From NCBI GenBank assembly GCA_000002435.2, contig CM018793.1: a DNA stretch of 64,000 nucleotides; one strand, written 5' to 3'. Made by a program: the position numbers and the translations under genes. The notes beneath the pieces were generated by a model. That model was not told the DNA's origin. It did no database searches and saw only the letters and a list, made by a program, of their open reading frames with translations. Source of the stretch: Giardia intestinalis (Eukaryota). Shown here one piece after another: positions 1-64,000 of this stretch (positions within the stretch are counted from its first letter, which is position 1; each line of letters starts with the position of its first letter).

Positions 1-389
1 GTCAGTGAATTGGGAACCCCTGTCACATAAACAAGATTACTTTGCAAGACCCGCGTTTTGCTCAATTCGCTCTTATTAATATGTGAATGGCTGGAAGAAA
101 GAAGGGTGCTTTGCCTATGAGACTTTACAGGTCTGGAACGAGGTTTAGATTGAGGCAATCTTTTGTCGGGAAATTGCCGCATAAACTCTTCGGGAGTCAA
201 TCTTCTATATACTTTAGGGTCATATACTGTCCTGCAATGAGGGCATTGGCCACCTTTGACTTTGTCGAAGCAGAAAGCACAGACCTGGTAATTGCAGGTA
301 CATGGGAAGAAAAGGAGTTCATCCTGTCCAGTCATCTTATTGCAGCACAGGGGACAGGTGTTGAGGTCGTCACTCGGCTCTTCACTCAT
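1..389 (-). CDS. NOT4: CCR4-NOT complex subunit NOT4 (CNOT4/Mot2-type RING E3 ubiquitin ligase), N-terminal part; partial, continues beyond left window edge
   Basis: Hand translation of the minus strand shows an open frame from the ATG (complement of 387-389) to position 1 with no stop. It is absent from the ORF track because it is incomplete. Translation begins MSEEPSDDLNTCPLCCNKMTGQDELLFFPCTCNYQVCAFCFDKVKGGQCPHCRTVYDPKVYRRLTPEEF. This matches the diagnostic CNOT4 RING (human CPLCMEPL..FFPCTCGYQICRFCWHRI...CPACRKPY). The following LVYVTGVP looks like the start of the RRM. An in-frame TAA lies upstream at 441-443. Confidence 0.75.
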   Translation of the reverse strand, partial: MSEEPSDDLNTCPLCCNKMTGQDELLFFPCTCNYQVCAFCFDKVKGGQCPHCRTVYDPKVYRRLTPEEFMRQFPDKRLPQSKPRSRPVKSHRQSTLLSSSHSHINKSELSKTRVLQSNLVYVTGVPNSL

Positions 390-435
390 CTCCGTTCCGG
401 GAGTCTCTAACCAAATTATTAGACCTCGGTTTAAC

Positions 436-2499
436 TCAATTTACAGGTATGGTCGAGGCGTGCCCTGCCGCCTCGCTAATGGTATCTTCTACCATGTCCA
501 TGCGCTGCCTTGCCTCCACTGCTTCTGCGCGCTTCATCTCTGCAAGGACAAGCTCATAAAGGAGATCTCCTTGGCTGTTCCTTAGGCTTCCCTCAAATGG
601 AAACAGGGCTTGAATACACTCTTTCTGTCCGGCACGAATAGCTGCCACAAGAGCAGTTTGCCCGTTGTCTGCAGTCATACCCTTCTCTCGTTCTAACAGC
701 AGACGAAGGCTGGCAAGACTCCCCTCTCGGGCAGCATACATCAGCGCCGTCCAGCCGTCCTGATCTTGCATGCAAGCCTCCCGCTCTAATAGCAACCTGA
801 CACTGTCGTAGTGATTAGCTTGAGCAGCCAGCATCAGTGCAGTCATACCGTCTGCCTTTCGGGCTCCAGCCTCCAGAAGAAGGAGTTCTGTTGTGACGGC
901 GTGTCCATTCTGCGCTGCCTTCATTAGAGCAGTCCATCCACTTACATGAGCAAAGACCGTGACAGACGTATGCTTCTGGATTCCGATCTCAGACAGCAAA
1001 AGCTTGACGCACTCTAAGTGCCCAGCAGATGCAGCAAACATCAATGCCGTGTCGCCCAGGTACACATGTCGCACCAAGGAGAGATTTGCGTTGACAGTGG
1101 CTGTAGCGCCCATGTGCGCGGCCCACATAAGAGGCGTCTTCTCTTGAACTTCTATGAGGTGCTGGGATTGGTATCGGAAGATCTCTGCTGCGTTTATTAA
1201 AACGTTATGTATATAGATGTGAGAGAGCAAGGCAAAGAGGAGCTGGGGGTTATTAGATGCAAGTGAGGTTGTGACGGCTTCATAGGGAGACACAGAGAGT
1301 AGCCGTATCTTGGACTCTATTACCGCCTTCTGGTTGTGTAGTGTAGAGCCAGGACTATTGAAGTGAACAAAGGACGTGGCAATATTTCCATATTCTTGAA
1401 TATCGCTATTAGAGTCTGTGGACACAACGCTTGATGGAGTGCCCGGAAGCTTCGCCTGCCTCCCGGAGGACGGCGTGTCGTCACAAGCGGTCGTAAACTT
1501 AGGCAGTTCTGCTTCAGGAGCATCGGCATCGATATCTGGAGCTGAATTAGTTTTTGGGAGGTCTAGTATTTGCGAGGGGCCGAGTGCCTGGTGCATCAAT
1601 CCCGCGTCGTGATGTTGAGGAGAAACAAAAAAGTCTGTATAACAAAGCGAGTCTGAAAGGTAGTCTGCAGGTGTCCTGCTCGCTATTATGGCATTGTAAA
1701 CCGCAGCACGGGCCGCCTGTTGGGTGGGCAGTAATGCAAATATCTCAGCAGCCGTTATGCGCTCAGTTGGATCAACGAGCAGACAGGAGTGGACCAGCCA
1801 GGTAAGCGTCTCGGAATACCCAGAAAGGGAAAGTGAGCTAAGATCGTGTGCGGCGGAACCGTAGCGTACAGTCAGCGTGGACGCAAGATCTAAAATGATG
1901 AGACCTAAAGACCAGATGTCTGCAGCAGGCCCGCTGGTTTGCCACCGCATCGTCTCTGGCGCAACATAGAGCCGCGCATCGGCGAGGCTCTTCCGGTTTG
2001 GGCGCCGCATGATGAACCGCGAAAGACTAAAAAAGGATAGCTTAAATATGTTTTGCTTCCGTAAAATCGTTGCAGGGCGAAGGTCGCAGTGGGCGGTTGG
2101 AGCCCGGCCATTGATGCGGCTGTGCAAATGGGCAAGACCTTCTGTCACGTCTCCGAGAATCTGCCATATGTCCACCTCTGGAATCTGGGACCCGTGGTTT
2201 CCGACGAGGTACTGCTCCAATGTGCCGCCAGGCATGTATTCCATCTCGACCTCGATGTGTCCCGACTCCCAATCAATCATAGGCTCGTTGAACTGAACTA
2301 TTTTATGATGCTGATATTGGAAGTACAGCCTGCACTCCTCAGCAAGGTGCACAAGGTCATCAGGAGAGGCCTCTGGCATGTCGGCCACACGCAGAGCAAT
2401 AAATCCCTCGGTCCCGCTCTTCTTGACCCGATAGAGGTACCCAAAGGACGCCTCCGCTAGAAGAGATACATCGTAGTACTGACTTGCCCGCAGCCCCAT
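436..2499 (-). CDS. NEK-family protein kinase-like protein with C-terminal ankyrin repeats; predicted catalytically inactive (pseudokinase)
   Basis: 687-aa ORF with an ATG start. The N-terminal protein-kinase fold is recognisable from the APE motif (YVAPE) and subdomain IX (DIWSLGLI). The VAIK Lys is replaced by Arg (FIALRV), the Gly-loop is degenerate, HRDLKPxN reads HCDLRPAT, and DFG reads SFF. The C-terminal half carries Giardia-style ankyrin repeats (GWTALMKAAQNGH..., GMTALMLAAQANH..., GWTALMYAAREGS...). Confidence 0.8.
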   Translation of the reverse strand: MGLRASQYYDVSLLAEASFGYLYRVKKSGTEGFIALRVADMPEASPDDLVHLAEECRLYFQYQHHKIVQFNEPMIDWESGHIEVEMEYMPGGTLEQYLVGNHGSQIPEVDIWQILGDVTEGLAHLHSRINGRAPTAHCDLRPATILRKQNIFKLSFFSLSRFIMRRPNRKSLADARLYVAPETMRWQTSGPAADIWSLGLIILDLASTLTVRYGSAAHDLSSLSLSGYSETLTWLVHSCLLVDPTERITAAEIFALLPTQQAARAAVYNAIIASRTPADYLSDSLCYTDFFVSPQHHDAGLMHQALGPSQILDLPKTNSAPDIDADAPEAELPKFTTACDDTPSSGRQAKLPGTPSSVVSTDSNSDIQEYGNIATSFVHFNSPGSTLHNQKAVIESKIRLLSVSPYEAVTTSLASNNPQLLFALLSHIYIHNVLINAAEIFRYQSQHLIEVQEKTPLMWAAHMGATATVNANLSLVRHVYLGDTALMFAASAGHLECVKLLLSEIGIQKHTSVTVFAHVSGWTALMKAAQNGHAVTTELLLLEAGARKADGMTALMLAAQANHYDSVRLLLEREACMQDQDGWTALMYAAREGSLASLRLLLEREKGMTADNGQTALVAAIRAGQKECIQALFPFEGSLRNSQGDLLYELVLAEMKRAEAVEARQRMDMVEDTISEAAGHASTIPVN

Positions 2500-2550
2500 C
2501 GTCAGATCGATGCGTGTTGCAGGACTGAGGATGTGAAAAAGAAGTCGGCG

Positions 2551-2582
2551 TCAATTTTTTTTGAATTTTTTGATTTTTAAGG
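2551..2582 (+). promoter_or_regulatory. A/T-rich initiator-like tract immediately upstream of the SPP ATG
   Basis: The tract tcaattttttttgaatttttgatttttaagg abuts the ATG at 2583. Short AT-rich initiators within about 50 bp of the ATG are the established core promoter type in Giardia. Confidence 0.4.
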
Positions 2583-7700: not shown

Positions 7701-9147
7701 CATAGCCACTAAGATCACACCAACCTTTATTGATGTCATTCAGGAGGAGTACAGACTCCAGAAGAATGCAACAGACAAGCTATTTATTGAGGCAGCACGA
7801 AACATGGACAGAAAAGTCCGAGAGAGCGTTACACGGCCATCTTCACAAATCTTTGTCCGGAATACTCCACAAGCCAGGTTCTCGGCCAATAGTGATACAG
7901 ACCCATCAGCGAAGATTAACCGGCACTCTGTGTTGCTTGATATAGCCATGCAAGGAGATCGATTGGCAGGTGATGGGGATCTGGTTCAGGATCACTTCAC
8001 CGGAAAAATACCTGCCAGTACCATAGCAGAAGCTCAACACTTAACAAATAAGATCGGTAATCCTAAGAAATCTAGAACATCTAACACATTAAGTCCATCC
8101 CGGAAACCCACCAGACCTGCATCAGCCACACAGATTAGAAAAGCATCTGGAAGCGTGTTGTCATATACGTCAAGAGAGATAATGCAGTCAGTGGACACAC
8201 AGCTCTACAGACAGCAATTGAGCATGGAGAAGAGTCGCTATCGGTCGTCCAGCAATCGCACAATAACTAAGTCAGATGCAGACGAAAAGCGAGAGCAAAA
8301 GAATACCATGAAGCTTTTGTATCAGAATAATGAAGACTTGATGCGGCAAGAGAGACAGGTGCAGCACCAAGAGCATCTCAATCGCATAGCACTTATAAAG
8401 AATACACCATCCAAGTCTTACATGACTGATGAGAAGAACGCCGGAATAGCCGTCTATAGGAATGCAGCCAGGAGAGCACGTACAATATCTAAGAGGAATC
8501 GCAACATGTCCAAGACATCAAACACAGCAGAAGAGATCAGGCGGGCTGTCTGCAACGACAAGCTGCGCTACCAAGGCCTGTCGTCTGCCGAGCTCGCAAA
8601 GGGCCTTGTCATCTCCACTGGTGAGCTGGTAAAACCACTCAACGTGCCTTGCCTAGAGGAAGTGGTAGAACACGCAGGAAAGATAAAGGTGGCTCCTTTA
8701 GAGCTCATAGGCTTGAGTACAGATGTGATCAGGAATATAGAACCTGATTTGAAAAGCCTATCTGCTGCAGGAGAGCAGTTTCTAAGCGATGAATTGGCAT
8801 GGGAGGAGCAGATGCGCGACCCGGACTACAAGTTCCAGAGGACAACGAGCCGAATGGCAATGTGCAGTCACGTCAATAATAGCAAGCTAGATGCTAGTAG
8901 GATTCAGAATTTACAGGTCCTTACCTTTAGCAGCCTACCCATTAACGAAGCTGGGCAGCATATGAACGGTATTCTGCAAGAGATGACATTTAGGGCGGAC
9001 GCAGGCCTAACGCTTAAGGGCTTTACCCCAGGAGAACAAAGCCCCGTGCATGCAAAGGCTAGCGAAGCGCGCTGCATTGCACAGCAGCTTCTGCAGAAGG
9101 CCAGTGGGAAGGCCTTGAGAGCTAACTCTAAGACAAGGTCACTTTAG
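4777..9147 (+). CDS. Large leucine-rich-repeat-containing protein (N-terminal LRRs, long low-complexity/disordered remainder)
   Basis: 1456-aa uninterrupted ORF. The N-terminus holds about 4 canonical LRRs (LSLSNCGLEKVP..LQELDLSRNRLTHC..LKVLDLSDNYLTDV..LEVLNIEGNPL). The remainder is Ser/Thr/Asn/Gln-rich. Confidence 0.6.
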   Translation: MDYLLSAAHSERDSGSNGSIQDYLDFDLIPRPLASMQSFLMKDILDKLVVLSLSNCGLEKVPACLRALPCLQELDLSRNRLTHCASQFITANLPFLKVLDLSDNYLTDVGELQHLGVLNDLEVLNIEGNPLPFAASRCEAIRALLFQTAHTEAFSSRARQLHATHRTNIKYSPFLLLGSYKTIVSDYPSAVANAVKASLAVKQGSYDALDTSDYLKKQLSIDAHKLTNGSFFSRSSWTNEGIVVSGPGCVLLSDARLEAPLVYIGKRDDIFNTYNSCLGATETYANLIYRKAKNASSAANTGINQAKLVKTQLDNCSDEDHLRFFGSLNFSYLDSYTDQRNSLSNTTKRPVSTSEYLRKRASSHSLIVSTASAGMIDNYNINRAIDMPADIEANLTKKGQTQHFFINLNQRPLHNIDSPFPRLRILNNLIITVDDYDRAKQLNTTVQYTNYLLSPRAQFRSTRRSSATRRGLSGEKGKSLGLLSFNRSHCIPPSEILQQRQFADRERQNTLMLEQQVCDHLKQFIMTGEINSNDGEESIDLLQASNESIGDTLDDATTKMAHTNPPAMLTQRTGPTSASANGLISGSFASDRDADLQHLDQHLAMTQLASDAFNPLPSEHSAMRVSELGVARTGVIGNLAMDKHVLEENELKTKRRSGAAALASSSIAFTSNAFKALASSQYAHKDTFKQSENKLGCTQTLGKTEADTTEYALSLASTTKLGRTTVNDDTMTHLLESTPSVGVMHARAKSQFMKVRPLSSTQQESFMRTAVEAKEAYPSRLEQVTLESLITKQANDRLSDQHQQRKREIAASENMLRAPGLKTTIGIIDDDALVVQRDTIAKTAEPLDILIRNADTTEEFDRIMSLDGQFRASKISPEYNTAYSMKMFGKSNVSGGASAKPVGTPEEATSGTTVADSVAARSIHPTAQDADEDAYVRLVKASISQNPLKLETNAISYEKMANPEFADKDLIPNTSIATKITPTFIDVIQEEYRLQKNATDKLFIEAARNMDRKVRESVTRPSSQIFVRNTPQARFSANSDTDPSAKINRHSVLLDIAMQGDRLAGDGDLVQDHFTGKIPASTIAEAQHLTNKIGNPKKSRTSNTLSPSRKPTRPASATQIRKASGSVLSYTSREIMQSVDTQLYRQQLSMEKSRYRSSSNRTITKSDADEKREQKNTMKLLYQNNEDLMRQERQVQHQEHLNRIALIKNTPSKSYMTDEKNAGIAVYRNAARRARTISKRNRNMSKTSNTAEEIRRAVCNDKLRYQGLSSAELAKGLVISTGELVKPLNVPCLEEVVEHAGKIKVAPLELIGLSTDVIRNIEPDLKSLSAAGEQFLSDELAWEEQMRDPDYKFQRTTSRMAMCSHVNNSKLDASRIQNLQVLTFSSLPINEAGQHMNGILQEMTFRADAGLTLKGFTPGEQSPVHAKASEARCIAQQLLQKASGKALRANSKTRSL

Positions 9148-9390
9148 GGAAATCGCCTCCCATGGCGCAGCACAGAGTGGGCAAATGACGTTGCTAGTCA
9201 GCCATGTGTGTATACATTCTGTGTGGAAGACATGGCCGCACTTGCTCTTGACCAAAGAGCACGTCGAGTCTGTGCTGGCGCACGTTGGACAGAGTTCATG
9301 GCAAGGGATCTTGCAGACAGCACATGCTGCAAGCTCGCTGGCGAAGCGCCAGGCAACGAACTTATTTACAGCAAGGGTTCTTAGGGACAT
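9139..9390 (-). CDS. RING-box protein (RBX1/APC11-family RING-H2 finger, cullin/APC E3 catalytic subunit)
   Basis: 83-aa ORF: WRFASELAACAVCKIPCHELCPTCASTDSTCSLVKSKCGHVFHTECIHTWLTSNVICPLC. This matches the RBX1/APC11 pattern of a C-x2-C, an extra Zn-ligand insert, C-x-H-x-F-H-x2-C-I-x2-W-L and a final CPLC. The 3' end overlaps the convergent LRR gene by 9 nt. Confidence 0.7.
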   Translation of the reverse strand: MSLRTLAVNKFVAWRFASELAACAVCKIPCHELCPTCASTDSTCSLVKSKCGHVFHTECIHTWLTSNVICPLCAAPWEAISLK

Positions 9391-9708
9391 TTTTAGGATT
9401 GCACTACAACTATGAATAGCAGTTAGTTCGGTGCTCGGGAGTCTAAGGTAAACGCATACTGTTTACTATTGTCCATGTGAGCTACCAATTGAAGTCGTTG
9501 ACATGGCCAAAGGAGCGAGAGTTCACTCGTCGGCTGCAAATCATGCTTGCAAGCTAGACCCGGTGGCACAGCGCACATATAGAACTATCCATCGCACAGT
9601 CCTCGTGAGTGTTACGTGCACTAACATATGCGCATTAACATATGTTGAGACGCTGAACTCCCATACAGCATTGAGTGCGTTCAATTCAATAGTCTCCATT
9701 CAGAGAGT

Positions 9709-29217: not shown

Positions 29218-29748
29218 ATGGCGCTGATATCATATCCGACAAAGGACACACTCTTCTTACTAGACGCTGGGATAGCGATAAACGCCATGGAGCAGCTACC
29301 GCCCAAAGTCTTTGTTAGAAAGATTGCAGAGGTGTTTCCCAGGTCGGCGGTGCTTCTTGGTCCCAGGCCTGCGGACAACGTGGCACGACTGGGAAGACTA
29401 TCCGAGAACATTCGGTCGTATATAGTTTGCACTCTGCTGTGCATGCAACGGTTGCATCAGCAGATTAGACGCCCAAATAGCATTTTAGACACAAGGAATT
29501 GCCGCAGAAGGCAGCTGGCAGAGAGCAGAGAAGCATTCTACGTGCTCCTAAGGATATACATAAAGCTTTATGAGCAACGAGATCTGCGGGCATCAATCTT
29601 CTCTGGGCTCTGTGACATGTCTCCTAGGGATCTAAATTTCCTCGAGATAGAGCTCCTTTGCATGTTGCACTTTTCACTAATAATCAGCACAGATGTATTC
29701 TTGACCGTGGTTTCTGACATCTGTAAAGGCAAAATGACTAAAATCTAA
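29218..29748 (+). CDS. PHO80-like (P/U-type) cyclin
   Basis: 176 aa. The cyclin-box core AFYVLLRIYIKLYEQRD...LNFLEIELLCMLHFSLII matches the PHO80-family pattern (VFLTALTVASKFL...LNALEREFLFLLDFDL). Confidence 0.5.
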   Translation: MALISYPTKDTLFLLDAGIAINAMEQLPPKVFVRKIAEVFPRSAVLLGPRPADNVARLGRLSENIRSYIVCTLLCMQRLHQQIRRPNSILDTRNCRRRQLAESREAFYVLLRIYIKLYEQRDLRASIFSGLCDMSPRDLNFLEIELLCMLHFSLIISTDVFLTVVSDICKGKMTKI

Positions 29749-29756: not shown

Positions 29757-30533
29757 ATGCGATGTGACTGGGAGGTCGTAAAGCGCTGCTTTGAAGCCCA
29801 ACCAAACTTTGCTGACTATATCCCATCCAAGAAAAATGGCCTGTTTCCTGTAGATGAGAATATGGTCTTTCGAGCTCTGAATTTGGTTGGGAGTCCGCGA
29901 AATGTGCGTATTATCATAGTGGGCCAGGACCCCTATCCTCGTGCAGAATCTGCCGTCGGCATCTCATTCTTAGACGGTGCAGTCGAAAGCTTTCAGAGTC
30001 CTCGGCTAGCTCCAAGTGTCAGGCACGTGCTGCAGGCCATCTTGGTTTCTCGCAAACTAATGGGCCCCCAGGACAGCGTTGATAAATTGCGTGCTGTCTT
30101 GAAGGACAACATCGGAGAAACGCAGACAGAATGGTTTACCTCCCTTGCTACGCGATGCGGTGTTCTGTGGCTTAACCGAAGCCTAACGTTCGGAGGAAAG
30201 GACCCAAAGACCTTGCAAGTGCACCTGACATTTTGGAAGCCTGTTATAGAGACCATTCTGGAGGAGGTTGTGCGAGCAAGGACAAGCAGCGGATTGATTG
30301 TTTTGCTCTGGGGCGCGAAAGCAGCTGATCTTAGGCCCGTCTTGGTAGGGCTTGCAAACAAGCATAAAAACTGCTCTATGAAGCTCCTTTTAAATGTCCA
30401 CCCTCTAGGCCACACCTTTCCCGGCGCAGGAGTATTTGAAGCAGTAAAAAAGGTCGAGGAGGAGCTCAAGATGGGTGTAACTGACTTTCTATCTGCGACG
30501 GTTTCTAAACATGACCACAGTGATGAATTGTGA
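29757..30533 (+). CDS. UNG: Uracil-DNA glycosylase (family 1, UNG-like)
   Basis: 258 aa. The water-activating loop reads RIIIVGQDPYPRAESAVGISF (UNG: [20 protein letters not shown]). The uracil-specificity region is GVLWLN (UNG: GVLLLNAVLTV). The segment LIVLLWGAKA matches LVFLLWGSYA. The C-terminal His motif reads VHPLGH (UNG: AHPSPLS). It starts 8 nt after the cyclin stop. Confidence 0.7.
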   Translation: MRCDWEVVKRCFEAQPNFADYIPSKKNGLFPVDENMVFRALNLVGSPRNVRIIIVGQDPYPRAESAVGISFLDGAVESFQSPRLAPSVRHVLQAILVSRKLMGPQDSVDKLRAVLKDNIGETQTEWFTSLATRCGVLWLNRSLTFGGKDPKTLQVHLTFWKPVIETILEEVVRARTSSGLIVLLWGAKAADLRPVLVGLANKHKNCSMKLLLNVHPLGHTFPGAGVFEAVKKVEEELKMGVTDFLSATVSKHDHSDEL

Positions 30534-30674
30534 TAAAACTGGCTCTTTCAAAAACCTTCAAATTAAAAACTATGATGAGGTTAGCGATCCCAAGCGGGGC
30601 CTGGCCCTGCGTTGCAGACAACGCATCACCGCTCTGACCTTTACTAAATGCTGAGTGTGGCTCTGAGGGCTTTT

Positions 30675-40896: not shown

Positions 40897-40901
40897 CGTT
40901 G

Positions 40902-40908: not shown

Positions 40909-40921
40909 ACCATGGGTAAAA

Positions 40922-42181: not shown

Positions 42182-42199
42182 AGACAATTGGAGACTGAA

Positions 42200-45100: not shown

Positions 45101-45825
45101 GTCCGGTACACTCCTTTGACGCTCTACCGTTATGGTACTATAATCCAGGTCATCCAAAGCCACCCTAGGACTTTGAACACCTTGAGCGGGCAACATTAAA
45201 GACTGCATGGTGAACTCTGTGGTTAGAGCAGGCCCATCTGTGTCCTTACCAGTTCCACAAGCTTGTGGATCAACATCTCCTGTGTCAAAGTATCGCACAA
45301 CGGCATGATGGCCCTCGGTTTCCGCAAGCGTACGACTATAGATGCGCTCTTGCTTCGACGGTTTATACTGAGTTACTATTTCAACGACACATCTTAAATT
45401 TCCTGTCATAGAAGCGTAGTCAAGTGCATTCAAGTCGTGGTCGTCCGTCACTAGAGAAAAGTAATGTCGCAGTGTGACAAGGGCGTCATAGCTACCCACC
45501 TGGGCTGCAATCATATAAGCATCACGTTTGTCCGGTAAAATTATGTCTGCTTCGAGGGGAGCTAAGAGGCTACACAAATCCGCTGAGTTATTCAGCGCAG
45601 CCATGATGAGAGCTGTACAACCCTCATTATTTACCATCCCCACTTCATAGTCTATTAGGAGCCGCACAATCTCAGCATTTTTCATTTGCACAGCATATTG
45701 TAAGCCCGTTTCACCAAAATCACCACAAACACCTGCACACTCAGGTAGGAGGCGCTCTACCTCGCTTATGTCACCGCTCTGAATGGCACGAAACCACGTT
45801 CTAACCTTATTATCCCTACTCATCA
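42200..45825 (-). CDS. Ankyrin-repeat / long coiled-coil protein (Protein 21.1 family)
   Basis: The track ORF starts at 45826 with TTG (protein MM...). The ATG is one codon later. It has N-terminal ankyrin repeats, an approximately 700-aa coiled-coil/low-complexity core, and a C-terminal ankyrin cassette (TALMFAAIYN..., KTALVHALEKGH..., KTALILAIELRK...). It is a tandem paralogue of the next gene. Confidence 0.8.
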
Positions 45826-45853
45826 AACAAATTTATCATAAACCGATTCACTT

Positions 45854-48800
45854 TTAGACGGATCTGCTAGACAGAAGAGAGCTGAGAATATAGTGGGATG
45901 GCAGGTCCTTGGAGACGTAGAATAGTGCATCGTTCCCTTGGTTGTCCCGGATCTCTTTCTCTACTAGAAGAAGTCGCGCACAGGCTACATGCCCAGCTTC
46001 ACATGCATACATAAGAGCTGTCCTTCCTTCGGAGTCCTGTAACTTAGCTTGTAACCCAAGAAGATTGAACACTATGTATACATCTCCGTGGGCAGCAGCA
46101 GTCATTAGTTCCGTTCTGCGGTTTCCCTCAGATGAATAGACAGAGATATCTAGACCTTCCCAATTCAAGAGAAGGGTTGCAACTTTCAGATGATCGAGTT
46201 GGAGCGCTATATCTATTGCGCGTTTGCCATCTGAACGTGTCTTTCCTGCTTCAAACTCTGCCAGGTACTTAACAGCGGCAGGCACATTGTACTCAGCTGC
46301 CAGCATAAGAGCAGTCGTCCCGTTCTCCAGAGAGTATCCAATTTGCTGTAAGTTTGCGCCGATTGCCCTCATGTTGCCGGTCATGATGGCCTCCATCAAG
46401 GCAGTCGGATTTTTCAGAGGCTCGTGTGCAGATTGCTCACTGCTTCTAAGGATTGCTGTCACAATTGGAGCAACAGATGGTTTAATTAGACCAATTGAAA
46501 GCTGATCAAGAGGAGACGATGCTGCCACAGGGAATGCATCGAAGGAGTTACTCGATGGGATCTTCTCGTCGCCTGAAGATGTCCTAAGAACTGAAGCTGA
46601 TCTATATTCAGAGAGGGGATGTGACCTGGGCAGAAATACAGATGCTGGCCGTTGAGAAGATGACGCCCGAGATGCACCTGTTGCATGAACCTCGGCCATC
46701 AGCTGAGTGACCTGCCCATCTGCCTGGGCCAGCTGTTCAGTCAGACTCAGAATCTTTCCCTCAAGAAGAGAAACAGTCGGGTCGCCACTCTCTGCTGTAG
46801 GGTGCTTCTTAATATAATGGTCTGCAATTGTTGAAATAACGTTATTTTGGATTGAAATAGATAGATTAAGAATGTCAACCTCATTTGATAGCGCTACGTT
46901 TTCAATGACCAAGGAGTCTATGTCCTCAGACGGATGAGGACGTTGATCTAGAGAGTTTTTAGCTGCATCGTTGTCTAGGCTGCGATCTGCCATCAGCATA
47001 AGTAAATTCTGAAGCCTACCTATCTCAGCATCTTTAGCTAGCAATATATTTGACGCGTAGTGGAGTACAACGGGCTTTCCTGAAAGAGGGGATGGTTCAT
47101 GGAGCTGCTCGGTGGGTAAAGACTCGAACGCATCAGCACTATCACTAGGTTCTGGAGTTGCGTGTCGCGAAATTACATGCGCATCTTTAGAAGAAGAAGA
47201 AGGAGGAGGAGGGTATCTAATTGAGCTCTTAGGACGATCCGTACGTTCAAGTGCTTCCTCTCTCTCCTCTAAAAGATCAGTCGCCTTGGCAAGGGCTTCC
47301 TTTGTCTGGGCCAGCTCGGCACGAAGGTCACGTTCTAGTTCATCATATATATCATAGCACACTGGATCCGGAAGACGCGAGACCATACCATCCTGTGTTT
47401 CAGCCTCAAGGGCCTTCTGCAGCGATACTACTTGCATGGCCAATGCCTCCTCACGAGCAACATACTCCTGAACTACATTATCCAACATGTCATAGATGCC
47501 AGAAATCTTCTCAACAGTGTACTCTGCAAGCCTTTTGGAGACCTCATGAGCTGCAACTTCGTATGAGAGGAAGCCAGGAGGGTCTTGGAGAGGTTCAACC
47601 AGAAGGTCTATGGACACAGATGCATCTACCACATGCGTGGATACAGGGGCTATAGCACTAATGGTATTGGCTGTTGACTCACGCTGCACGGTGTTAGTAT
47701 TAATATTTTCTAACAGAGTTATAAGCCTCTCAATCTCGTCGTCCTTTTTGGCTAATATTTGAGAGTATTCGCGGCTAGAGGCTTGAGCTAGTAGTAGCTG
47801 TGTTGCCTGTAGTTGTGCCTCACGTTGCTCGCCAACGGTTCTTAGTTTGTCATTCTCTGACGTAAGGACTCTAAGTCTGCCTTCTACTTCCGCGATAGAG
47901 TTATCACGAGTTTCCATTGTGCTCTCAATTGTTCTGAGCTTCTCTTGCGTTTCCCGAAGAATATCCATGTCGTCACCATATGTTTGTACTTCTTTAAGTA
48001 GAGCACTGTTATCTGCTGTTAAACGTCTGATTTCGGCCTTGAGCTTATCTATTTCCAATTCTTGTTCGTTGGCAGCGAGCGTCAGTAGCCTGACCTTCTC
48101 TTTCTGGGCGGTAAGTTCATTGGTGGCGTCGGAAGCTGGCAAAGCGAGAGACAGTTGCTCCTCTCTTAGGGATCTAAGACGGAGAATCTCCTCATCCCTT
48201 TCTTGAATGGCAAGTTTCAAAGCGTCGATTTCTGCCTGTTCCGTGTTGATCAGATTGCCTTGATGAAATTGAGAGTTTTGAAGAGATGTGGACCGACACC
48301 TGCCAAACGCAGCTCGGCTTTTGGCTAAGCTGGTCGTGGAATGAACCATACTCGACGGGGTAGTTGCCCTGGACACACTTTTCTTGCTAGACCTAGTGCT
48401 TCGACTATCGGTAAGTTTAATGACTTCACTTTCTCCATCGAGATTGGGGCTGCCATTGAGAACTGCTGGTTGTTCTTGTGCTATGTTAACTGAGTATGCG
48501 CTGATAATATACTTCAAACGATCTATTTCTTCATTTTTCTCCAGTAGTTCTGCTTGCAATGATGTGATAGTAGCGTCCTTAGTTTGAAGCATATCCAAGG
48601 ACGCTTGCTGTGGAAGAGAAACTCCACCAGCACCAATCTGGACCCCTAAAATTGCGTTCAGTCTAGCTGTGGAGCTCTGCCCATCATCTGCATATGCACT
48701 GTCATGAGCATCTAGTACAACTGAGGCTGGCGGTGTAGCGATTCTGGCAACAACATCGCATAGTACTGGAGAGTCTTCTTTCATATCATTGAACACAAAA

Positions 48801-51475: not shown

Positions 51476-51498
51476 CCCTATCTCTTTACTAAAATTTT

Positions 51499-52191
51499 AT
51501 GGAGCTTGTGATAGAACCAGTTAAGCAGCATAGGCGCCAAACTCTGTCCACCCAGGTACGTGAGGGCAGGCAACAAGCAGAGGAGAAAGCCCGTTGTGTA
51601 GATAAGCAAACTGTCGACTGGAGCAACAAATCCTTTGCAACAATTCGATTGCCAGAGCAAAAAACCACTAAGTACGAGGATTGCTGGAGTTCGTTTTCTG
51701 ATACGTATACTGACATTGTGACGTCTGAATTCATAGAGCAAATCGAGAAACAAACTAAAGAACAAATCCGGATTAATGAACTCCCAAGGCAAAGCACTAC
51801 ACCTACAGTCGTCAACATAAATCCACCTTCACCAGAGCGGTCAACTGTCAATCAGAGAGCCTTCAAAAAATTAGCACAACCCCGAACGTATCGAAAAGGA
51901 TATCTGCCAACCAGTACAGTATTGTCTCCGACATTTGCATTTTGCAATAGAAGATACCTAGAGCACAGTCTCTCAAAGAACACAGAATCACCAAAATCAG
52001 AGAAGAAACGTGCGGAGATTATGTCCTGCAAACGATTAGCTCATTCAACGGATATAGCCATTCACTGGCATAAATATGGCGAGCATACAGAGTCAGTTCT
52101 TCATATAAACGCTTTTAGCCATTACGCAGAGCCACGTAAGGCGTCTTATGCTACAGGGACCATAGAGAAATCCGAGAAAGCTCTGGAATAG
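51499..52191 (+). CDS. Hypothetical small basic protein (230 aa), questionable
   Basis: This is the only ORF over 200 aa in the 675-bp spacer between two minus-strand genes. It overlaps the Raptor 3' end by 41 nt. Lys/Glu/Thr-rich with no motifs. It could be a chance ORF. Confidence 0.25.
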   Translation: MELVIEPVKQHRRQTLSTQVREGRQQAEEKARCVDKQTVDWSNKSFATIRLPEQKTTKYEDCWSSFSDTYTDIVTSEFIEQIEKQTKEQIRINELPRQSTTPTVVNINPPSPERSTVNQRAFKKLAQPRTYRKGYLPTSTVLSPTFAFCNRRYLEHSLSKNTESPKSEKKRAEIMSCKRLAHSTDIAIHWHKYGEHTESVLHINAFSHYAEPRKASYATGTIEKSEKALE

Positions 52192-55100
52192 CGATCAATG
52201 GGGCTCGCGGGTGGAATGCAATGCACTGAGGTTCTGTCTGTATGGGCGCTTTGTATGACATTTCACCTAGACACACTCCTGAAACATGTCCAAAAGTGAT
52301 GTTATACGTGAGAATATTCGCTGATTCTGTGTTACCAGGGCTCAAGGGCGTATCTTCTACGCACGAAAATAGCCCAGTATTGTGAAAGTTAACTGTCCTG
52401 GAGCTGGGTATAGAGTACTGCTTCAGTACAGTATCGGTGGCAGTGTCCTTGGACAAGAGTCTGCCAGATGCCGTTGACAAGAAAAGGGTATTGTCATACA
52501 ATGCACCACCATTGATGACCTCCGGGACCTTACCGGTCATAACTGAATTATTGCTTCTGGCATCAAATATGGAGTATTCTTTAGATCCATATGTCAGCAC
52601 TCCACAGCTCAATATGCCTGAGCACAAAGGTACTACATTATCGACAAGGTGGGCAGGCCTAAGTGTCAGGTACTTGGACTCGTGCATGAGATCTATGTAG
52701 CTGACCTCTGTCCCGCCCCGAATGGCAGTCACAATGTGTGGTGCTGTGGTGTGCATCTCTAGAAGGTCTGAATGTCCTCTAAGGATGGGGATGTTATTGG
52801 GCAGCACGGGGGTGTATGTCCACTCACCAACTCGCCTGGCAGATCCAGGTTCGTCTGGCTTCTTCTTTTCATGGAATAACGCGTTGCATATCTTGCTACG
52901 GGCGATAATGTATTGCTTCTTATGATGATTAAGAACAATATCAGGAGAGCTCATGTCTGCATTGAACTTATGTCTATAAAACTCGGCTATTGCATATGGA
53001 CACTTTTGCAGCCTTGTAGACGAGTATAGTGGCTCTGAAGAAGGTGTTCCTACGTTGAACGCGGACGTGTGTCTGCAAAGAGACGTGTCATGATAGTTTG
53101 TAAGAATTCTAACGGTACAATCTGCTGCAGCAATAGCCACCACGCTATGAGGAGTATGCTGGTTCAGAAGGACTATGTCTCCAAGCCAAGCAGATCTATT
53201 TTCCATAGAATATGGGCTTCTTTGCTCTCTGATGAGCTCGGTCATCTTAGAGTATGCGCTAGTCTTATTCTCCAGTGGCACAGCCTCTTCGTCATCGTCC
53301 ATGTCTGGGAAAAGCTTTCTTAGTAGCTTCGGATCAAAGTCTCTTGCCGAAGCAGAGCCTTGCTTGTATAAAATCTTCAGCAGTTGTGAAGAGAAGCTTT
53401 TCAGGACACTATAGTCTAACGACCTTGATGTATTGAGAATGCAGCAGTGGGGACACTCAAGAGATGCTGCATCTGCTTCGAGCATATTAGCTAAGATAAT
53501 TGGCTCAAGGGCTGTGCAATTATCCGTCGCCCAGTTCATCATATTATACGCTTGCGGACCTTGTGGGAAAGCAAGCATTGGGGTATGCAGGTGGCCTGAT
53601 ATTATCCCCCCGCCGGGCCAAGACGTAGGCTGGACGTCCAATATTAGATCAAGTGGTAGCTTATTCAAGAGCTCTCCGGTCGTGGTGTTCCAAACGCAAC
53701 AGGTAGATCCGTTATTCGTAAGCAGAATCGTCTCATTTCGATGAAATACAGCACTTTTAATTGCGCCAGTGCAATGAGAAATAGAGTTGACCTTTTTTAA
53801 CAATAGGGCTGACTTTTCTGAGCAGCGTGCCCCTCCACTGGATTTGTATTCTGCGAAATAGAACGCCCCGTTATCACCTACTCGCCTCTTTAGAACGTCA
53901 CGTACTTCACGTGCCTTCTTCACAGGAGCAAATCTAGAGCTAAGGTGATCTCTTTGCTCGGGATACATTGTGTGAAGTTGTCTTAGAAGATCAACTTCAG
54001 TCATAGCAGTGCAGCTGTTATTGCTTTCCGCATCTGGGAAACTCGTTCGCGAGGTTGCCTGAGAGGGAGCATTTATCTGCCTCAAACTAATCATTGGAAT
54101 AGTTTCGCTGCCTATGCTGTGCGCAGAATCAACTTTTGGAAGCATCTCCATTACAAATAACCCCTCCGGGACAGACTCTGTGGCCAACTTTATAATGGTG
54201 TTGTCTGCTCCTTCTCCGGGCTTTAGTTCCTGTGCATTGCTTTGACTGTTGGGCGAGGACTTTGGAAGTATCTGAAAGGAGCCATCACTGTTTATTGTTA
54301 ATGGCTGAATGTTGGAGCTAATTGACTTCTGAGATAGAAGAGCTGATTTCATCCCTATCTGGTTGTCAGATAGCTTTAAGAATCGAACCTTGCTTAGACT
54401 CTCAGATAACCGATCATAGTCAATATCATTGATTGTAGCAGTGATTCTATTATGCATCTCCATTAGAAAGTTGTTCCTAGTCCATATAAGTGAAGAGTTG
54501 TTATCAGTTGTAAAAAGCGATGTCCTATTTTGTTGGGTGTAACGTAGAATAGGAGATTGCTCTATGCTATTAAGAGATATCATAAGGTAGTTTGAGAAAT
54601 CAAAGAACAAGGCGTGTAGAGCGAGAGAACATACGTATGGAACGAGGTAACCAAAATAAATCTCCTCCATAGGAACTATTAGTTCGTCTCCAAAGTATGC
54701 CTGCGATATCTCACAATACGCCAACGATTCAAGATATGGGAATGGTGATGCAGCCGTTTGCAATTTGAACCGAACAAAGTCGTGTGAAGGCAAAGTGGCA
54801 CTGGTAGATGCGGTTTTCAAGGGTGAGCCAGAGGATTTGCTTTTCAATTCCTTGATGTTTCTTTTCGCTGGTGATGTACTAGTTGAGCTCCTATCTGCTC
54901 TGTTGACCTTTTCGTTATCCTGCATAATTCGTACTCCCAGAGGATTAACATCCCTTGTAATAGTAAACCTTGTAATAGTAAATCTAGAGGAGCTGGTAGG
55001 AAACTGGAGGTTGCTCCTGCTCCATATGCGCATAGCGTCCATACAGTATGTGAGGAGAGGACTAGCCATCGCTGCATTGCGACAGAAATGGCAATAGTGG

Positions 55101-60112: not shown

Positions 60113-60428
60113 AAAGCTATCGGCCGATTTTTTTAAAGAGAACCTAAGTTGTCACCGAAATTAGGTGCCTGTAGCTCTGATAGCAATGTGTCCTAGTTAT
60201 TTGCTCAACGAGACTGTGTGGGCCCAATATTTACTGAAACTTCTGTTTACTCGTTGAAAAATGACTCAGAGACGACTCACTATACATGGCGCATGTTTCT
60301 ATTAAGGACAACCAAGCGTTAGTAGCATAGAGGTTGCCGAAGGTAGCAATATTACAATATTTTAAGTTGATTGTATGGAGGCGGACACCCAATTACAAAT
60401 TTGCACTTAATTAATTGGAAAAAATCCG
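60113..60428. promoter_or_regulatory. 316-bp divergent intergenic region between Raptor and an ankyrin/coiled-coil gene
   Basis: Flanked by ATGs on opposite strands. It ends in cacttaattaattggaaaaaatccgATG. Confidence 0.35.
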
Positions 60429-63269
60429 ATGCGTCCAGCCAAAAGGGGTAAGTCTCAACTGTCTAAGCAGACTGTTGCTGAATCATCTCCCCCGCAAATA
60501 GCGAATGTGCCTCTGCCGGAGAACAGCACTCAGGCGATAGGCGACCTCTTAGAACGTGGCGCAGATCTTTGCACTGCGTACTCACAACTTGCCGATCAAC
60601 GCACCTCTTTACTCTCTGAACAGTTAGAGCAATGCAGTAACCACGATCTTAAGCGCTACTATAGTCGGCTCAATGAGGAACTGACTCTAATCACCCAGAT
60701 CAGCTCGAGGTTGCGTGCAGATCTTAAGTTCATTGCAGCGCAGTCACAAGGATTAATTGTCATTAGCTCTAAAACCATGTCTGATGACCCAGGGCTCTCA
60801 TACAGTTCTTCTCCACCCAGTAAGATGGATGCGTCTGATAGATGTCATGGGTCAATGACCGAGTCAACGCTCCAGGCGTCGACGCGAAGGTCCACGCGCC
60901 TCACTCCCAGTGAGGTTGAGGACTCCCTGGTTCAGGAGTTTATTAGAAAAGGTAACGCGCCCAGATCTGAGGCCGTCAAGTATGCTAAAATTGCTATATC
61001 ATTTGACCCCTCTGGGTATGCTGTTGGTGGAGACAAGCGGAGCTATAAAGAAGAGTTCATTGCAGCTAACTCTGAAAAAATTAGGTTACACGCAATGTTG
61101 CGAGATTCGGAAGCAGAGGTACAACGCTTGAGGAGCTTGGTTGAGCAAGCGCCATCTGAATTAGAGACAAAGCAGCTCAGAGCCAAGACTGCTATACAGG
61201 AAGACAAGATTAACTCTCTTAGATCAGTTTTGTCAATCAGGGATGCATCTAGGACTCGTGACAGCGTTGGTGAGAGTGCCCCTGCATCTCGTCTCGACCA
61301 TGATTTGGTGGATGAATTAACTAAGGAGAACATGGCTTTAAGAATAGAATTGGATAATCAGATCTCTATTGCTAATGCTCAGAATAAAACACACAAGCAA
61401 GAAGTTAGAAAGTTGCGTGAAAAGATCAGTGCTATGCAAAGTCAAGCGTCTCAGGAAGAGAATAAGCCTCAGTTCAAGGAAGCCTCGACCACACCTCAAG
61501 CTTCGGGGCTGTTTGAATCTACTCTGGGTTGTGATACCGGGTATCCTTGTTCTGATGATGACTCTGTGGACAAGAGCTATGTCGCTGAGCTTGAGGATGA
61601 CTTGACTCGTGCGCTATCTCGCATACAAGCCTTAACGGAGGAGAGGAACGCCCTTCAGGCAGATCTGAATAACAAGCTTTCTGCCAAGGCTGAGACTAAC
61701 CTTACAGCTAACCAAGTCCAGGAATTGGCTGCAAACAACATGATTCTCTCTAACGCTTTAACTGCACAGCACCAGCAGCTGACGGCTGCTTTCGCTGAGC
61801 TGAATCAAAAGAACGCCGATCAGCTTGTCCTGCAAAATACCATTCAACAGTTGACAGCTCAGCGTGATTACAACTCTCAAGCAATACAGGCGGAGATGAG
61901 TTCAAAACTAGATGCACAGATCAAGCTATACACAGAGCTTAAGGCTAATTATGAAAGTGCATTGGAGCTTATACAACAGCGCGATGACACTATTCTTCAG
62001 ATGTCAAATGATCTTTCCTCAAATGATAGGGTCACCATGCGCTGTGATAGAGACAATGCACGGCTAGAGCTTAAGGAGTGCAACCAGCAGCTTACTGAAA
62101 CAAAGCGACTACTACAGATGGTCACAGAGGCCATGGGGTATGAAGGCGGCTTCCCAACCACAACTGATGTTGAGCTTTGCGTTTCTCAGCACCAAAGGGA
62201 CAAAGAAAAGAAAACAATGCTAGAAACTGAGTATGCCTTGGCAAAACGAAAAATAGATAGTCTGGAAAAGGAATTGGCTGAGCTTAAGTCAAGTAGAGAC
62301 AGTCTGCAAAGCGCTATCCCCCCTAAGGTAACCCCGGCCAGTGCTATTTCCGCAGCTATTGCAGGTAGCAATGAAATCATTACTCCCCAGGATGCACAGC
62401 GATGTAATACACTATCTAATACTCTCACAGTTGCCCAAGGAATTCCTGGAAGTGCGACTGATTTGATTCGTAGCATGCGGGTCACTGGGGCCGACTTAGC
62501 ATCGTTTCGGACTTCTTCCGTCCGTACCACCAACAAAGCTGGGGTCGCATATGCAAGTTGTGAAATTCTCAATAGTTACACGCCGTTAATGAAAGCAATC
62601 ATAGCCGGAAATAACAGTGCGGTTTCACAAACTATTAGCTTCATAGGAAAGGCGGCGCTTGACGGCACAACAGCCCTCATGCTAGCCGCAATATATGACA
62701 ATAAAGAGGCGGTAGAGATATTAGCACCCCACGAAGCGATGATGAAGAGAAACGACGGAGCCACCGCGCTTAAGTTGGCTTTGCAGACACGACACCTAGG
62801 TCCAGCATCGATCCTGCTTAATTATGAGGGACCTACACTTCCTAAACAATTGCCGGGCTATCCACGTGAGGTAACTGCTTTGATGAAGGCTGCAGAGTTA
62901 GGTGATGTGGTGCTGGTATTTAGCTTGCTCGCTTCTCAAGCTGGGGCGAAGGATGCAGATGGAAGGACGGCTCTGATGAGGGCTGCACGAGCTGGGTTTG
63001 CAGACATAGTGTGGTTGCTAGCTCCACAGGAAGCTGGAATGCAGCTCATTAACGACACAGAGCTTGGCCCGGGCTCAACCGCACTGATGCTGGCTGCAAA
63101 TCAAGGACACCTCGAGTGCGTGAAGCTTCTAATTGCTAGCGAGCGAAAGTATAAGAATAATCTGAACTACGATGCTCTTTTCTATGCTCAGAGTTCTGCA
63201 TCTCATGTCTCCCCGGAGGATAGAGCTTCTATCATCGCTTTGTTAGAAGAAGGGTCTGGCACCCACTAA
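60429..63269 (+). CDS. Coiled-coil protein with C-terminal ankyrin repeats (Protein 21.1 family), 946 aa
   Basis: ATG start. It has about 600 aa of coiled coil. The C-terminal ankyrin cassette (TPLMKAIIAGNNSAV...GTTALMLAAIYDN...REVTALMKAAELGDVVLVFSLL...DGRTALMRAARAG...DALFYAQ) is nearly collinear with the C-terminus of 45854..51475. Confidence 0.8.
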   Translation: MRPAKRGKSQLSKQTVAESSPPQIANVPLPENSTQAIGDLLERGADLCTAYSQLADQRTSLLSEQLEQCSNHDLKRYYSRLNEELTLITQISSRLRADLKFIAAQSQGLIVISSKTMSDDPGLSYSSSPPSKMDASDRCHGSMTESTLQASTRRSTRLTPSEVEDSLVQEFIRKGNAPRSEAVKYAKIAISFDPSGYAVGGDKRSYKEEFIAANSEKIRLHAMLRDSEAEVQRLRSLVEQAPSELETKQLRAKTAIQEDKINSLRSVLSIRDASRTRDSVGESAPASRLDHDLVDELTKENMALRIELDNQISIANAQNKTHKQEVRKLREKISAMQSQASQEENKPQFKEASTTPQASGLFESTLGCDTGYPCSDDDSVDKSYVAELEDDLTRALSRIQALTEERNALQADLNNKLSAKAETNLTANQVQELAANNMILSNALTAQHQQLTAAFAELNQKNADQLVLQNTIQQLTAQRDYNSQAIQAEMSSKLDAQIKLYTELKANYESALELIQQRDDTILQMSNDLSSNDRVTMRCDRDNARLELKECNQQLTETKRLLQMVTEAMGYEGGFPTTTDVELCVSQHQRDKEKKTMLETEYALAKRKIDSLEKELAELKSSRDSLQSAIPPKVTPASAISAAIAGSNEIITPQDAQRCNTLSNTLTVAQGIPGSATDLIRSMRVTGADLASFRTSSVRTTNKAGVAYASCEILNSYTPLMKAIIAGNNSAVSQTISFIGKAALDGTTALMLAAIYDNKEAVEILAPHEAMMKRNDGATALKLALQTRHLGPASILLNYEGPTLPKQLPGYPREVTALMKAAELGDVVLVFSLLASQAGAKDADGRTALMRAARAGFADIVWLLAPQEAGMQLINDTELGPGSTALMLAANQGHLECVKLLIASERKYKNNLNYDALFYAQSSASHVSPEDRASIIALLEEGSGTH

Positions 63270-63279
63270 TATGGAAATT

Positions 63280-63286
63280 AGTGAAT
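63280..63286 (+). terminator. Putative poly(A) signal AGTGAAT 11 nt after the stop of 60429..63269
   Basis: AGTRAAY match (aAGTGAATttc) downstream of the TAA at 63267-63269. Confidence 0.4.
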
Positions 63287-63304
63287 TTCTTTTCCTAAAA
63301 AATA

Positions 63305-64000
63305 ATGACGCTAGAGCCGCACATTCTCCACGACGAGGATACCAATGACAGCGAGCAACACAGGGCGGCGTCGTTTTCTGATGTCTATGAGCTGTGCAGT
63401 ATTCTGCGAGGCGGATTTTCACTAGCGGAATACTTAGTTAGGCATATATCCATTGGTGAGAAATTCCTATGTGTGGAGCTCGATTACGGGAATATAAAGC
63501 ATTTCAATAAGGAACTCTGTCTGGCACGGCTCATGAGCTTCATGGGTCACCAGCATGCTAACCATTTGACATACCGTGAGTTCTTTGCAGACGAAGATGC
63601 CAGAAAGATCCAAATTATTATGGAGCCTTACATTAATAAATGCCTTTGTGACGTGATAGACCAGATTTGTCGCAGAAAGCTTACTCTTTCAGACGACGCT
63701 ATATGGGGTATCATTGCGCAGGTGTTCAATGGGCTTTATTTCTACCATCAGACTGACATCAATGGATTTTGTGGGAAAACACCCATTCATGGCGGAATAA
63801 ATGCCGAGAACATATATATTTCGACTAACGGAGTTGTACAATTGGGCCCGTTTCGGCTCCTCCCAGATTTTGAAGATGACTTCGATAACCTGCAGGAAGA
63901 TAGCACAGTGATACTGCCAACAAGCCCCGGCTCCACAGTACAGTCGTCGTGGAATGTTTCAGATCTTCAGGCCCTTGGATGCATAGTCTATGAGCTCTTG
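63305..64000 (+). CDS. NEK-like protein kinase-like protein, N-terminal part; partial, continues beyond right edge; predicted pseudokinase
   Basis: Open frame from the ATG at 63305 to the window end. It is not in the ORF track because it is incomplete. The kinase-fold landmarks are degenerate: IHGGINAENIYIS occupies the place of HRDLKPENI, and LGPFRL the place of DFG. Subdomain IX reads LGCIVYEL. Confidence 0.6.
   Translation, partial: MTLEPHILHDEDTNDSEQHRAASFSDVYELCSILRGGFSLAEYLVRHISIGEKFLCVELDYGNIKHFNKELCLARLMSFMGHQHANHLTYREFFADEDARKIQIIMEPYINKCLCDVIDQICRRKLTLSDDAIWGIIAQVFNGLYFYHQTDINGFCGKTPIHGGINAENIYISTNGVVQLGPFRLLPDFEDDFDNLQEDSTVILPTSPGSTVQSSWNVSDLQALGCIVYELL

Follow-up and report, generated by a model that had tools for sequence, protein, structure and literature searches.

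The 64,000-nucleotide stretch of DNA analyzed here (hereafter, the window) is almost certainly a 64-kb piece from within a nuclear chromosome of assemblage A Giardia intestinalis, WB clone C6 (ATCC 50803), as found in the published reference assembly. The species is also known as G. duodenalis and G. lamblia. In an exact-sequence look-up against the public protein collection, all 26 complete open reading frames (ORFs) of the window were residue-for-residue identical to annotated proteins of G. intestinalis ATCC 50803/WB clone C6. The accession numbers of these proteins are consecutive and follow the order of the window with none skipped, from KAE8305033.1 (the NEK kinase at 436-2499) to KAE8305058.1 (the ankyrin protein at 60429-63269), and they all belong to a single chromosome-scale WB contig of 4,018,654 bp; the RefSeq numbers of the older set (XP_001709387 to XP_001709360) have the same running order as the genes of the window. 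The matched organism is a eukaryote that belongs to the Metamonada, Fornicata, Diplomonadida. At the DNA level, positions 15433-28377 are 100% identical to six public short-read assemblies over 10-13 kb, and all named members of the 90%-identity clusters examined are Giardia sequences. The exact sequences of the 404-residue signal peptide peptidase (SPP), the high-cysteine membrane protein (HCMP), and the transporter are recorded on the WB contig alone. Because the exact protein matches are in order and these three sequences are recorded only there, the window is almost certainly the WB assembly itself, which is a sharper assignment than the "Giardia-like" DNA of an earlier note on this stretch. 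That note had regarded best matches to a nondiplomonad genome as evidence against its view; the best matches are WB C6 proteins at 100% identity.

The window resembles the WB C6 reference genome (Xu et al. 2020, Sci Data, PMC7000408) in the sequence and order of all 26 complete ORFs, in its compact intron-less layout, and in the A-rich context of its starts. There is no sequence difference between the two; the coding density of the window exceeds the genome average, and neither a VSP cluster nor a repeat-rich region is present in it. Since the sequence and its annotation have been published, the content of the window counts as already known, and nothing in it is new.

Another Giardia lineage (assemblage A2, B, or E, or G. 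muris) or another diplomonad could be proposed as the source instead of WB, given that close relatives of most of the proteins in isolates DHA2, P15, and GS share 90% clusters with the window proteins and that the gene order is kept there. Such an origin is very improbable, because the sequences, including the three recorded on the WB contig alone, match the WB accessions exactly. In DHA2, which is an A2 isolate, the orthologues carry consecutive accessions (ESU39732-39756), i.e., the same gene order, whereas their sequences differ slightly, with 1869 versus 1873 residues for an ankyrin protein and 401 versus 404 residues for SPP. Four of the P15 orthologues are located together on one 37-kb contig.

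A more distant lineage is represented by a divergent Giardia contig of 41.8 kb (Logan contigs SRR3177974_570/SRR3177934_176), which was found via a phosphoesterase homologue with 75% protein identity. Its gene run consists of a hypothetical protein (979 residues), valine-tRNA ligase (ValRS; 1217), a metallophosphoesterase (422), two ankyrin proteins (1183 and 1850), a small ORF (217), and a Raptor_N protein (2644), in the same order and orientation as in the window, from which the protein lengths differ slightly. Positions 34408-52315 of the window form one collinear 18-kb block with this contig at only 74.9% DNA identity, which also argues against an origin of the window in that lineage; because of the identity of approximately 75%, the contig is probably from assemblage B. 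The ValRS-phosphoesterase-ankyrin-ankyrin-Raptor block, whose synteny the earlier note had suggested checking, is thus collinear in a divergent Giardia contig, with the small ORF before the Raptor gene. Unlike in the window, the small ORF is separate from the Raptor gene in the divergent contig (17851 versus 17870).

The window has a G+C content of 47% with no compositional break. It contains 28 ATG-initiated ORFs of at least 150 codons on both strands, the longest of which encodes 2653 residues, whereas in 30 shuffles of the window ORFs of this size averaged 0.4 and did not exceed 196 residues. Once the first ATG had been substituted for the TTG starts called under the bacterial code, and the incomplete gene at each end of the window had been added, the gene set comprised 28 protein-coding genes, of which 26 are complete and 2 are truncated; 96.1% of the window is coding. 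A single box C/D snoRNA is also present. No tRNA gene was detected in the window by ARAGORN. Between adjacent genes, the 27 distances range from -41 to +460 bp around a median of 45 bp. The spacing of 4-120 bp given in the earlier note holds for 18 of them; it does not describe the three overlaps or the six gaps of 132-460 bp, the largest of which separates the divergently oriented HCMP gene and GL50803_2382. Of the 27 junctions, 16 involve a change of strand, unlike the same-strand gene runs of an operon. The 3' ends of convergent genes overlap in three pairs, at 9139-9147 (9 bp), 17524-17531 (8 bp), and 52151-52191 (41 bp); the polyadenylation region of each of these genes would therefore lie inside the coding sequence of its neighbor.

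Very tight spacing and the absence of introns are also what would be seen in a prokaryotic, viral, or plasmid locus or in a metagenomic chimera, in which the packed genes would be operons or a defense island, and several products (ValRS, uracil-DNA glycosylase [UDG], an RsmB-type methyltransferase domain, and a metallophosphoesterase) are from universal families. An origin of this kind can be dismissed for practical purposes. The location of the genes on one chromosome-scale Giardia contig in reference order is taken as already refuting it, and the frequent strand changes described above also stand against it, as do the eukaryote-only products (Raptor, the CNOT4 RING, ESF1, SPP, Yip1, and a box C/D snoRNA that yields a miRNA). 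Megablast of 25 kb of the window against plasmid and phage collections gave no match. Shine-Dalgarno (SD) signals are lacking: an SD-like 4-mer is present upstream of 1 of 28 starts, versus 12% of control ATGs, and no start is preceded by an SD-like 5-mer.

The starts show a different signal. The mean A+T fraction over positions -20 to -1 is 0.68, versus 0.52 for a control set of 429 internal in-frame ATGs (Mann-Whitney p = 7e-8), and a run of at least six A/T within 25 nt upstream of the ATG is found in 21 of the 28 genes, versus 17% of the internal in-frame ATGs. The A/T-rich sequence next to the ATGs, which the earlier note described as initiators, is borne out, and this context agrees with the A-rich start motif of the reference annotation paper, which reports just 8 cis and 5 trans introns genome-wide (PMC7000408). 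All ORFs of the window are uninterrupted and equal to annotated single-exon proteins. No exact match to CTRACMCACAG, the 3' motif of Giardia introns, occurs in the window, and matches with one mismatch are as frequent as expected by chance. The genes thus give no sign of introns, as had been claimed, and neither introns nor prokaryotic ribosome-binding-site architecture, either of which the earlier note would have counted against its view, was found across the window.

At the other end of the genes, AGTRAAY, the published poly(A) consensus of G. lamblia (PMC1805757), occurs in its strict form within -4 to +30 of the stop in 6 of 26 genes, versus approximately 0.3 expected, i.e., an approximately 20-fold enrichment (Poisson p~1e-4). 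Two of these six matches overlap the TAA stop itself, and the other 20 genes do not carry the strict form. The claim of AGTRAAY at stops is thus correct as an enrichment and too broad as a general rule.

A lineage-specific RNA is also present in the window. The box C/D snoRNA GlsR16, which belongs to a Giardia-only family, is located between the UDG gene and GL50803_28629, with a C box (ATGATGA) at 30572 and a D box (CTGA) at 30634. miR3 is a 26-nt RNA that is processed from GlsR16 in a Dicer-dependent manner (PMC3565978), and the published 26-mer matches positions 30614-30639 exactly, directly followed by CCTTTACTAAA. In an Rfam search at E <= 0.1, no noncoding RNA other than GlsR16 was found in the window. 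The sequence CCTTYAYTNAA, a 3'-end motif of Giardia noncoding RNAs, occurs once in the window, right after GlsR16, which is no more than chance allows; it was therefore rejected as a guide to additional noncoding RNAs.

Taken with the exact matches of the 26 ORFs, GlsR16 and miR3, the gene families expanded in this lineage (NEK-ankyrin, Protein 21.1, and HCMP/VSP), the collinear block in the divergent contig, the dense coding, the A/T-rich start context, the lack of SD signals, and the lack of introns uphold the description of the window as compact Giardia-like nuclear DNA and not a prokaryotic locus. The assignment to WB carries three caveats. First, strict AGTRAAY is found near the stop in just 6 of 26 genes, so this motif alone would not have identified the organism. 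Second, the identity is based on exact protein matches and on exact DNA matches of short-read assemblies that are limited to 15433-28377. Third, the window is 96% coding, denser than the WB genome as a whole, which is 81.5% coding with a mean intergenic region of 477 bp (PMC7000408). No evidence contradicts the assignment. The interpretation of the earlier note is accordingly supported with near certainty, while the observation on which it was built is only partly confirmed, because several of the supporting details were overstated or without proof.

One such detail is the statement that every long ORF encodes a eukaryote-specific product. It holds for Raptor, the CNOT4 RING, ESF1, SPP, and Yip1. 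It does not hold for 10 of the 28 genes, all of them annotated as hypothetical and without a detected Pfam family or PDB sequence relative (including proteins of 2607, 962, 766, and 396 residues), or for at least five families that are found in all domains of life, namely ValRS, UDG, the RsmB-type methyltransferase domain of NOP2, the metallophosphoesterase, and the Aa_trans transporter. The Giardia conclusion does not depend on this statement. The names ESF1, NOP2, and SPP are confirmed by the Pfam families RRM_ESF1 (125 bits), Methyltr_RsmB-F (196 bits), and Peptidase_A22B (139 bits), respectively. Protein 21.1-type ankyrin giants are present as claimed: there are three ankyrin giants, one of them with an orthologue in P15 that is called "Protein 21.1."

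The name Raptor is likewise confirmed, for the N-terminal part of GL50803_16734. The Raptor_N domain (PF14538) scores 47.5 bits against a cut-off of 27, and residues ~29-537 of 2653 align to Raptor/KOG1, all of the top Protein Data Bank (PDB) matches being Raptor/KOG1 chains (E 2e-29); the alignment is confined to the N-terminal ~540 residues. The same protein (UniProt A8B621) has been listed as RAPTOR-like (PMC10418948). Its likeness to canonical Raptor/KOG1 (human RPTOR, 1335 residues; PDB 5H64, 6BCX, and 7PQH) therefore covers the caspase-like Raptor_N and the start of the helical repeat region, whereas the Giardia protein is twice as long and contains no Pfam WD40 at E <= 1. The remainder of ~2100 residues has no detectable relative outside Giardia, a phmmer search with the C-terminal 1354 residues (1300-2653) gave no PDB match, and a single-sequence AlphaFold model of the C-terminus was unusable (pLDDT 31.9). 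The seven-bladed WD40 propeller expected at the C-terminus of a Raptor/KOG1 protein was thus not demonstrated. WD-like strings such as "CCVWN" and "DCTVRIL," seen by eye only, lie near residues 2115-2150 and 2324-2337 and suggest a propeller split by large insertions.

In contrast to the names above, "PHO80-like cyclin," given to GL50803_8771 (29218-29748), is unproven. The protein matches PF08613 in a Pfam search at E <= 1 with 13.3 bits and E 0.11, below the cut-off of 21, and five further tests gave no significant support. PF08613 has no match in three orthologues or relatives of the protein. Nothing relevant was found in the PDB by phmmer, and nothing at all by a profile search against PDB sequences. 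A word-indexed homologue search returned Giardia orthologues only, and a profile hidden Markov model run against 1.84 billion representative proteins returned only Giardia-type relatives, with one extra protein of 162 residues that has no Pfam family. An AlphaFold2 model built from a 6-sequence alignment (pLDDT 52.8) retrieved nothing from the PDB with Foldseek at E <= 0.001. Comparison with Pho80 by hhalign, for which the Pho80 sequence used was identical to 2PK9_B, gave E 0.12. The similarity that recurs below threshold is centered on the "SPRDLNFLEIELL..LHFSLII" segment, with E~0.1 against both PF08613 and Pho80. Nine putative cyclins of Giardia have been published, among which GL50803_13874 and GL50803_17400 are the PF08613 members, and GL50803_8771 is not listed (PMC10100927). 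The segment is the sole hint that this protein might be a PHO80/Pcl-type cyclin, extremely diverged and overlooked in the inventory of nine, which appears rather unlikely.

Two RING proteins are encoded near the left end of the window. The CNOT4 gene (1-389), 129 residues of which lie within the window, has an N-terminal C4C4 RING of the Not4 type (PF14570, 45.5 bits), and its top PDB matches are NOT4 RING domains (human 1E4U, E 8e-14; 1UR6; and 5AIE), in agreement with the name it had been given. The RRM and C3H zinc finger that come after the RING in CNOT4/Not4 would fall beyond the left end of the window. The second protein (9139-9390), previously named an RBX1-type RING-box, is a RING-H2 protein of the RBX1/APC11 type that exceeds the Pfam cut-offs of both zf-rbx1 (60.1 bits versus 31) and zf-ANAPC11 (43.9 bits versus 25) and is judged on these scores to have the RBX-type insertion. 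The RBX2, APC11, and RBX1 chains in the PDB match it indistinguishably (~1e-8 each), and the scores do not separate RBX from APC11 orthology; its orthologues in isolates GS and P15 are named APC11. The gene is probably GL50803_8432, since its neighbors are GL50803_8430 and GL50803_8433. GL50803_8432 has been called both an Rbx and the sole APC-like component of the genome, and published inventories of Giardia detected no cullin, Skp1, APC2, or other APC/C subunit (PMC7029713, PMC10100927). Because these are missing from the inventories, the usual partner of a RING-box protein would be absent; in this respect the Giardia protein differs from RBX1, RBX2, and APC11.

The earlier note described NEK kinases fused to ankyrin repeats, in the plural. 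One kinase, which carries ankyrin repeats, is complete (436-2499); the second kinase is cut by the window end and scores 23.4 bits, below the Pfam cut-off of 31.7. The first kinase, on the minus strand, has "IALRV" (Arg in place of the VAIK Lys) and "HCDLRPAT," and it has no DFG; the right-end kinase (63305-64000, plus strand) has HGGINAEN in place of HRDxKxxN. From these residues, both are probably inactive pseudokinases, and they are still members of the NEK family by annotation and by the Pkinase domain. Much of the NEK expansion of Giardia has been described as pseudokinases.

The HCMP with GGCY motifs was described correctly. The protein (31780-33849, minus strand) contains 77 Cys (11.2%), 21 CXXC, and 3 GGCY (at residues 121, 246, and 323), and its C-terminus consists of a transmembrane segment followed by a "...LMGSVDEF" tail, with no CRGKA tail. 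It is annotated as "HCMP Group 1" and is counted as a Giardia HCMP by the features that define these proteins, i.e., at least 10% Cys, many CXXC, GGCY, a signal peptide, one C-terminal transmembrane segment, and no CRGKA tail.

Table 1. Features of the window, with coordinates, strand, and the evidence for each; "exact match" refers to annotated WB proteins.
Feature	Coordinates	Strand	Evidence and remarks
CNOT4/Not4-type RING E3 gene, 5' part	1..389	-	starts at 389 and runs off the left end; zf-RING_4 PF14570 45.5 bits
NEK kinase with ankyrin repeats, 687 aa, KAE8305033	436..2499	-	Pkinase 100 bits, Ank_2 124 bits; exact match to WB "Kinase, NEK"
Signal peptide peptidase, 404 aa, KAE8305034	2583..3797	+	Peptidase_A22B 139 bits; exact match
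Hypothetical GL50803_8430, 265 aa	3917..4714	-	exact match; no Pfam family; conserved in assemblages B and E within 90% cluster
Leucine-rich-repeat protein GL50803_16951, 1456 aa	4777..9147	+	LRR_4 and LRR_8 in N-terminus only; exact match
RING-H2 "RING-box," RBX1/APC11 type, 83 aa, KAE8305037	9139..9390	-	zf-rbx1 60.1 bits, zf-ANAPC11 43.9 bits; 9-bp overlap with 3' end of preceding gene
Hypothetical GL50803_8433, ORF of 303 aa (298 aa in current annotation)	9709..10620	-	no family found
Hypothetical GL50803_16950, 396 aa, Ser-rich	10625..11815	-	no family found
Hypothetical GL50803_137720, 766 aa	11861..14161	+	exact match; in-frame tandem repeat 13580-14013
ESF1 homologue, 569 aa, annotated "Protein required for cell viability"	14197..15906	+	RRM_ESF1 125 bits; exact match
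Yip1 family protein, 245 aa	16013..16750	-	Yip1 42.9 bits; exact match
Hypothetical GL50803_16949, 229 aa, coiled-coil-like	16842..17531	+	8-bp convergent overlap with next gene
Hypothetical giant GL50803_103818, 2607 aa	17524..25347	-	exact match; no Pfam match at E <= 1; no PDB sequence match
Nucleolar protein NOP2, 502 aa	25433..26941	+	Methyltr_RsmB-F 196 bits; exact match; DNA 100% identical in six short-read assemblies
Amino-acid transporter family protein, 707 aa	26962..29085	-	Aa_trans 103 bits; exact match
Hypothetical GL50803_8771, 176 aa (earlier named "PHO80-like cyclin")	29218..29748	+	PF08613 E 0.11, 13.3 bits, cut-off 21
Uracil-DNA glycosylase, 258 aa, GQDPY motif	29757..30533	+	UDG 24.5 bits; exact match
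Box C/D snoRNA GlsR16, precursor of Giardia miR3	30565..30641	+	Rfam RF02338 106.4 bits, gathering score 100, E 7.7e-28
Hypothetical GL50803_28629, 289 aa	30675..31544	-	exact match; no family found
High-cysteine membrane protein, Group 1, 689 aa	31780..33849	-	Pfam Giardia VSP 42.3 bits; exact match
Hypothetical GL50803_2382, 962 aa	34310..37198	+	exact match; no significant family
Valine-tRNA ligase, 1218 aa	37240..40896	+	tRNA-synt_1 430 bits and Anticodon_1; exact match including BAA28839.1
Acid-sphingomyelinase-like metallophosphoesterase, 419 aa	40922..42181	+	Metallophos 32 bits; exact match
Ankyrin repeat protein, Protein 21.1 type, 1207 aa	42200..45823	-	Ank_2 116 bits; P15 orthologue named "Protein 21.1"
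Ankyrin repeat protein, Protein 21.1 type, 1873 aa	45854..51475	-	Ank_2 142 bits; exact match
Hypothetical GL50803_5497, 230 aa	51499..52191	+	exact match; 41-bp overlap with Raptor 3' end; 217-aa orthologue at same position in the divergent contig (L007)
RAPTOR-like GL50803_16734, 2653 aa	52151..60112	-	Raptor_N 47.5 bits
Ankyrin repeat protein, 946 aa	60429..63269	+	Ank_2 101 bits in C-terminal third; exact match
Kinase-like gene, 5' part, probably NEK pseudokinase	63305..64000	+	runs off the right end; Pkinase 23.4 bits, cut-off 31.7

Several other features of the genes in Table 1 were observed. SPP is present as the 404-residue form on one contig and as a 402-residue form on 164 contigs, and forms of 399 and 401 residues, which have one NGM unit fewer in the C-terminal tail, are found in other isolates. 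The last 70 residues are identical between the 404- and 402-residue forms, so the difference between these two lies further upstream. The tandem repeat of GL50803_137720 consists of 5.6 in-frame copies of a 78-bp unit (Tandem Repeats Finder score 861, 99% matches) that encodes a 26-residue unit, ...PYLAVGEAYRDEEHHRDPLPDRPRER. Database versions of this protein (650-818 residues) have 1 to 8 repeat cores, with eight in the old WB model and six in the new one, and the low counts, which come from short-read assemblies, may be collapsed. An antisense ORF of 157 residues and an alternative-frame ORF of 160 residues over this repeat are by-products of its periodicity. In the transporter gene, 28376-28377 is the common end of six independent public short-read contigs, each of them 100% identical to the window; no local repeat that would explain this shared end was found, and it is likely to come from a paralogous copy elsewhere or from allelic heterogeneity.

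The giant GL50803_103818 is an orphan, yet it is conserved in other isolates; PDB sequence searches with this protein and with the 289-residue orphan found nothing. The long intergenic regions 9391-9708, 31545-31779, 33850-34309, and 60113-60428 (235-460 bp; G+C 0.38-0.51) contain no annotated gene and have no Rfam match, and an ORF of 102 residues at 9503-9811 is absent from the current annotation.

Each gene in the window already has a GiardiaDB identifier, and the value of the origin call is practical and not scientific: it sets expectations for how other findings from this stretch are to be read. Start codons should be taken as ATG and not as the TTG or GTG of a bacterial ORF caller. The corrected labels should not be carried forward as facts; they concern the cyclin, the subtype of the RING-box protein, the 10 orphans among the 28 genes, and the kinases, which are probably inactive.

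From established knowledge of Giardia, we infer that transcription here is monocistronic and that the initiators and poly(A) signals are actually used. Each gene would then be an independent eukaryotic transcription unit, driven by an A/T-rich initiator-type element directly upstream of the ATG. Since the initiator adjoins the ATG, the 5' untranslated regions would be very short, and polyadenylation would take place no more than tens of bases from the stop and, in convergent pairs, inside the coding sequence of the neighbor. Neighboring genes share no evident function; for example, the ESF1, Yip1, and NOP2 genes lie with that of a transporter, and ValRS lies with a sphingomyelinase-like enzyme and ankyrin proteins. 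If the genes are independent units, adjacency does not imply shared function, and reasoning by operons or defense islands would not apply. The view that no multi-gene system of the prokaryotic type is to be expected here is judged sound, with Giardia as the host, strand changes at 16 of 27 junctions, and an SD-like sequence at 1 of 28 starts. The gene neighborhoods in this segment of the Giardia chromosome are not operons, and close packing, overlaps between 3' ends, and a lack of introns are normal in them.

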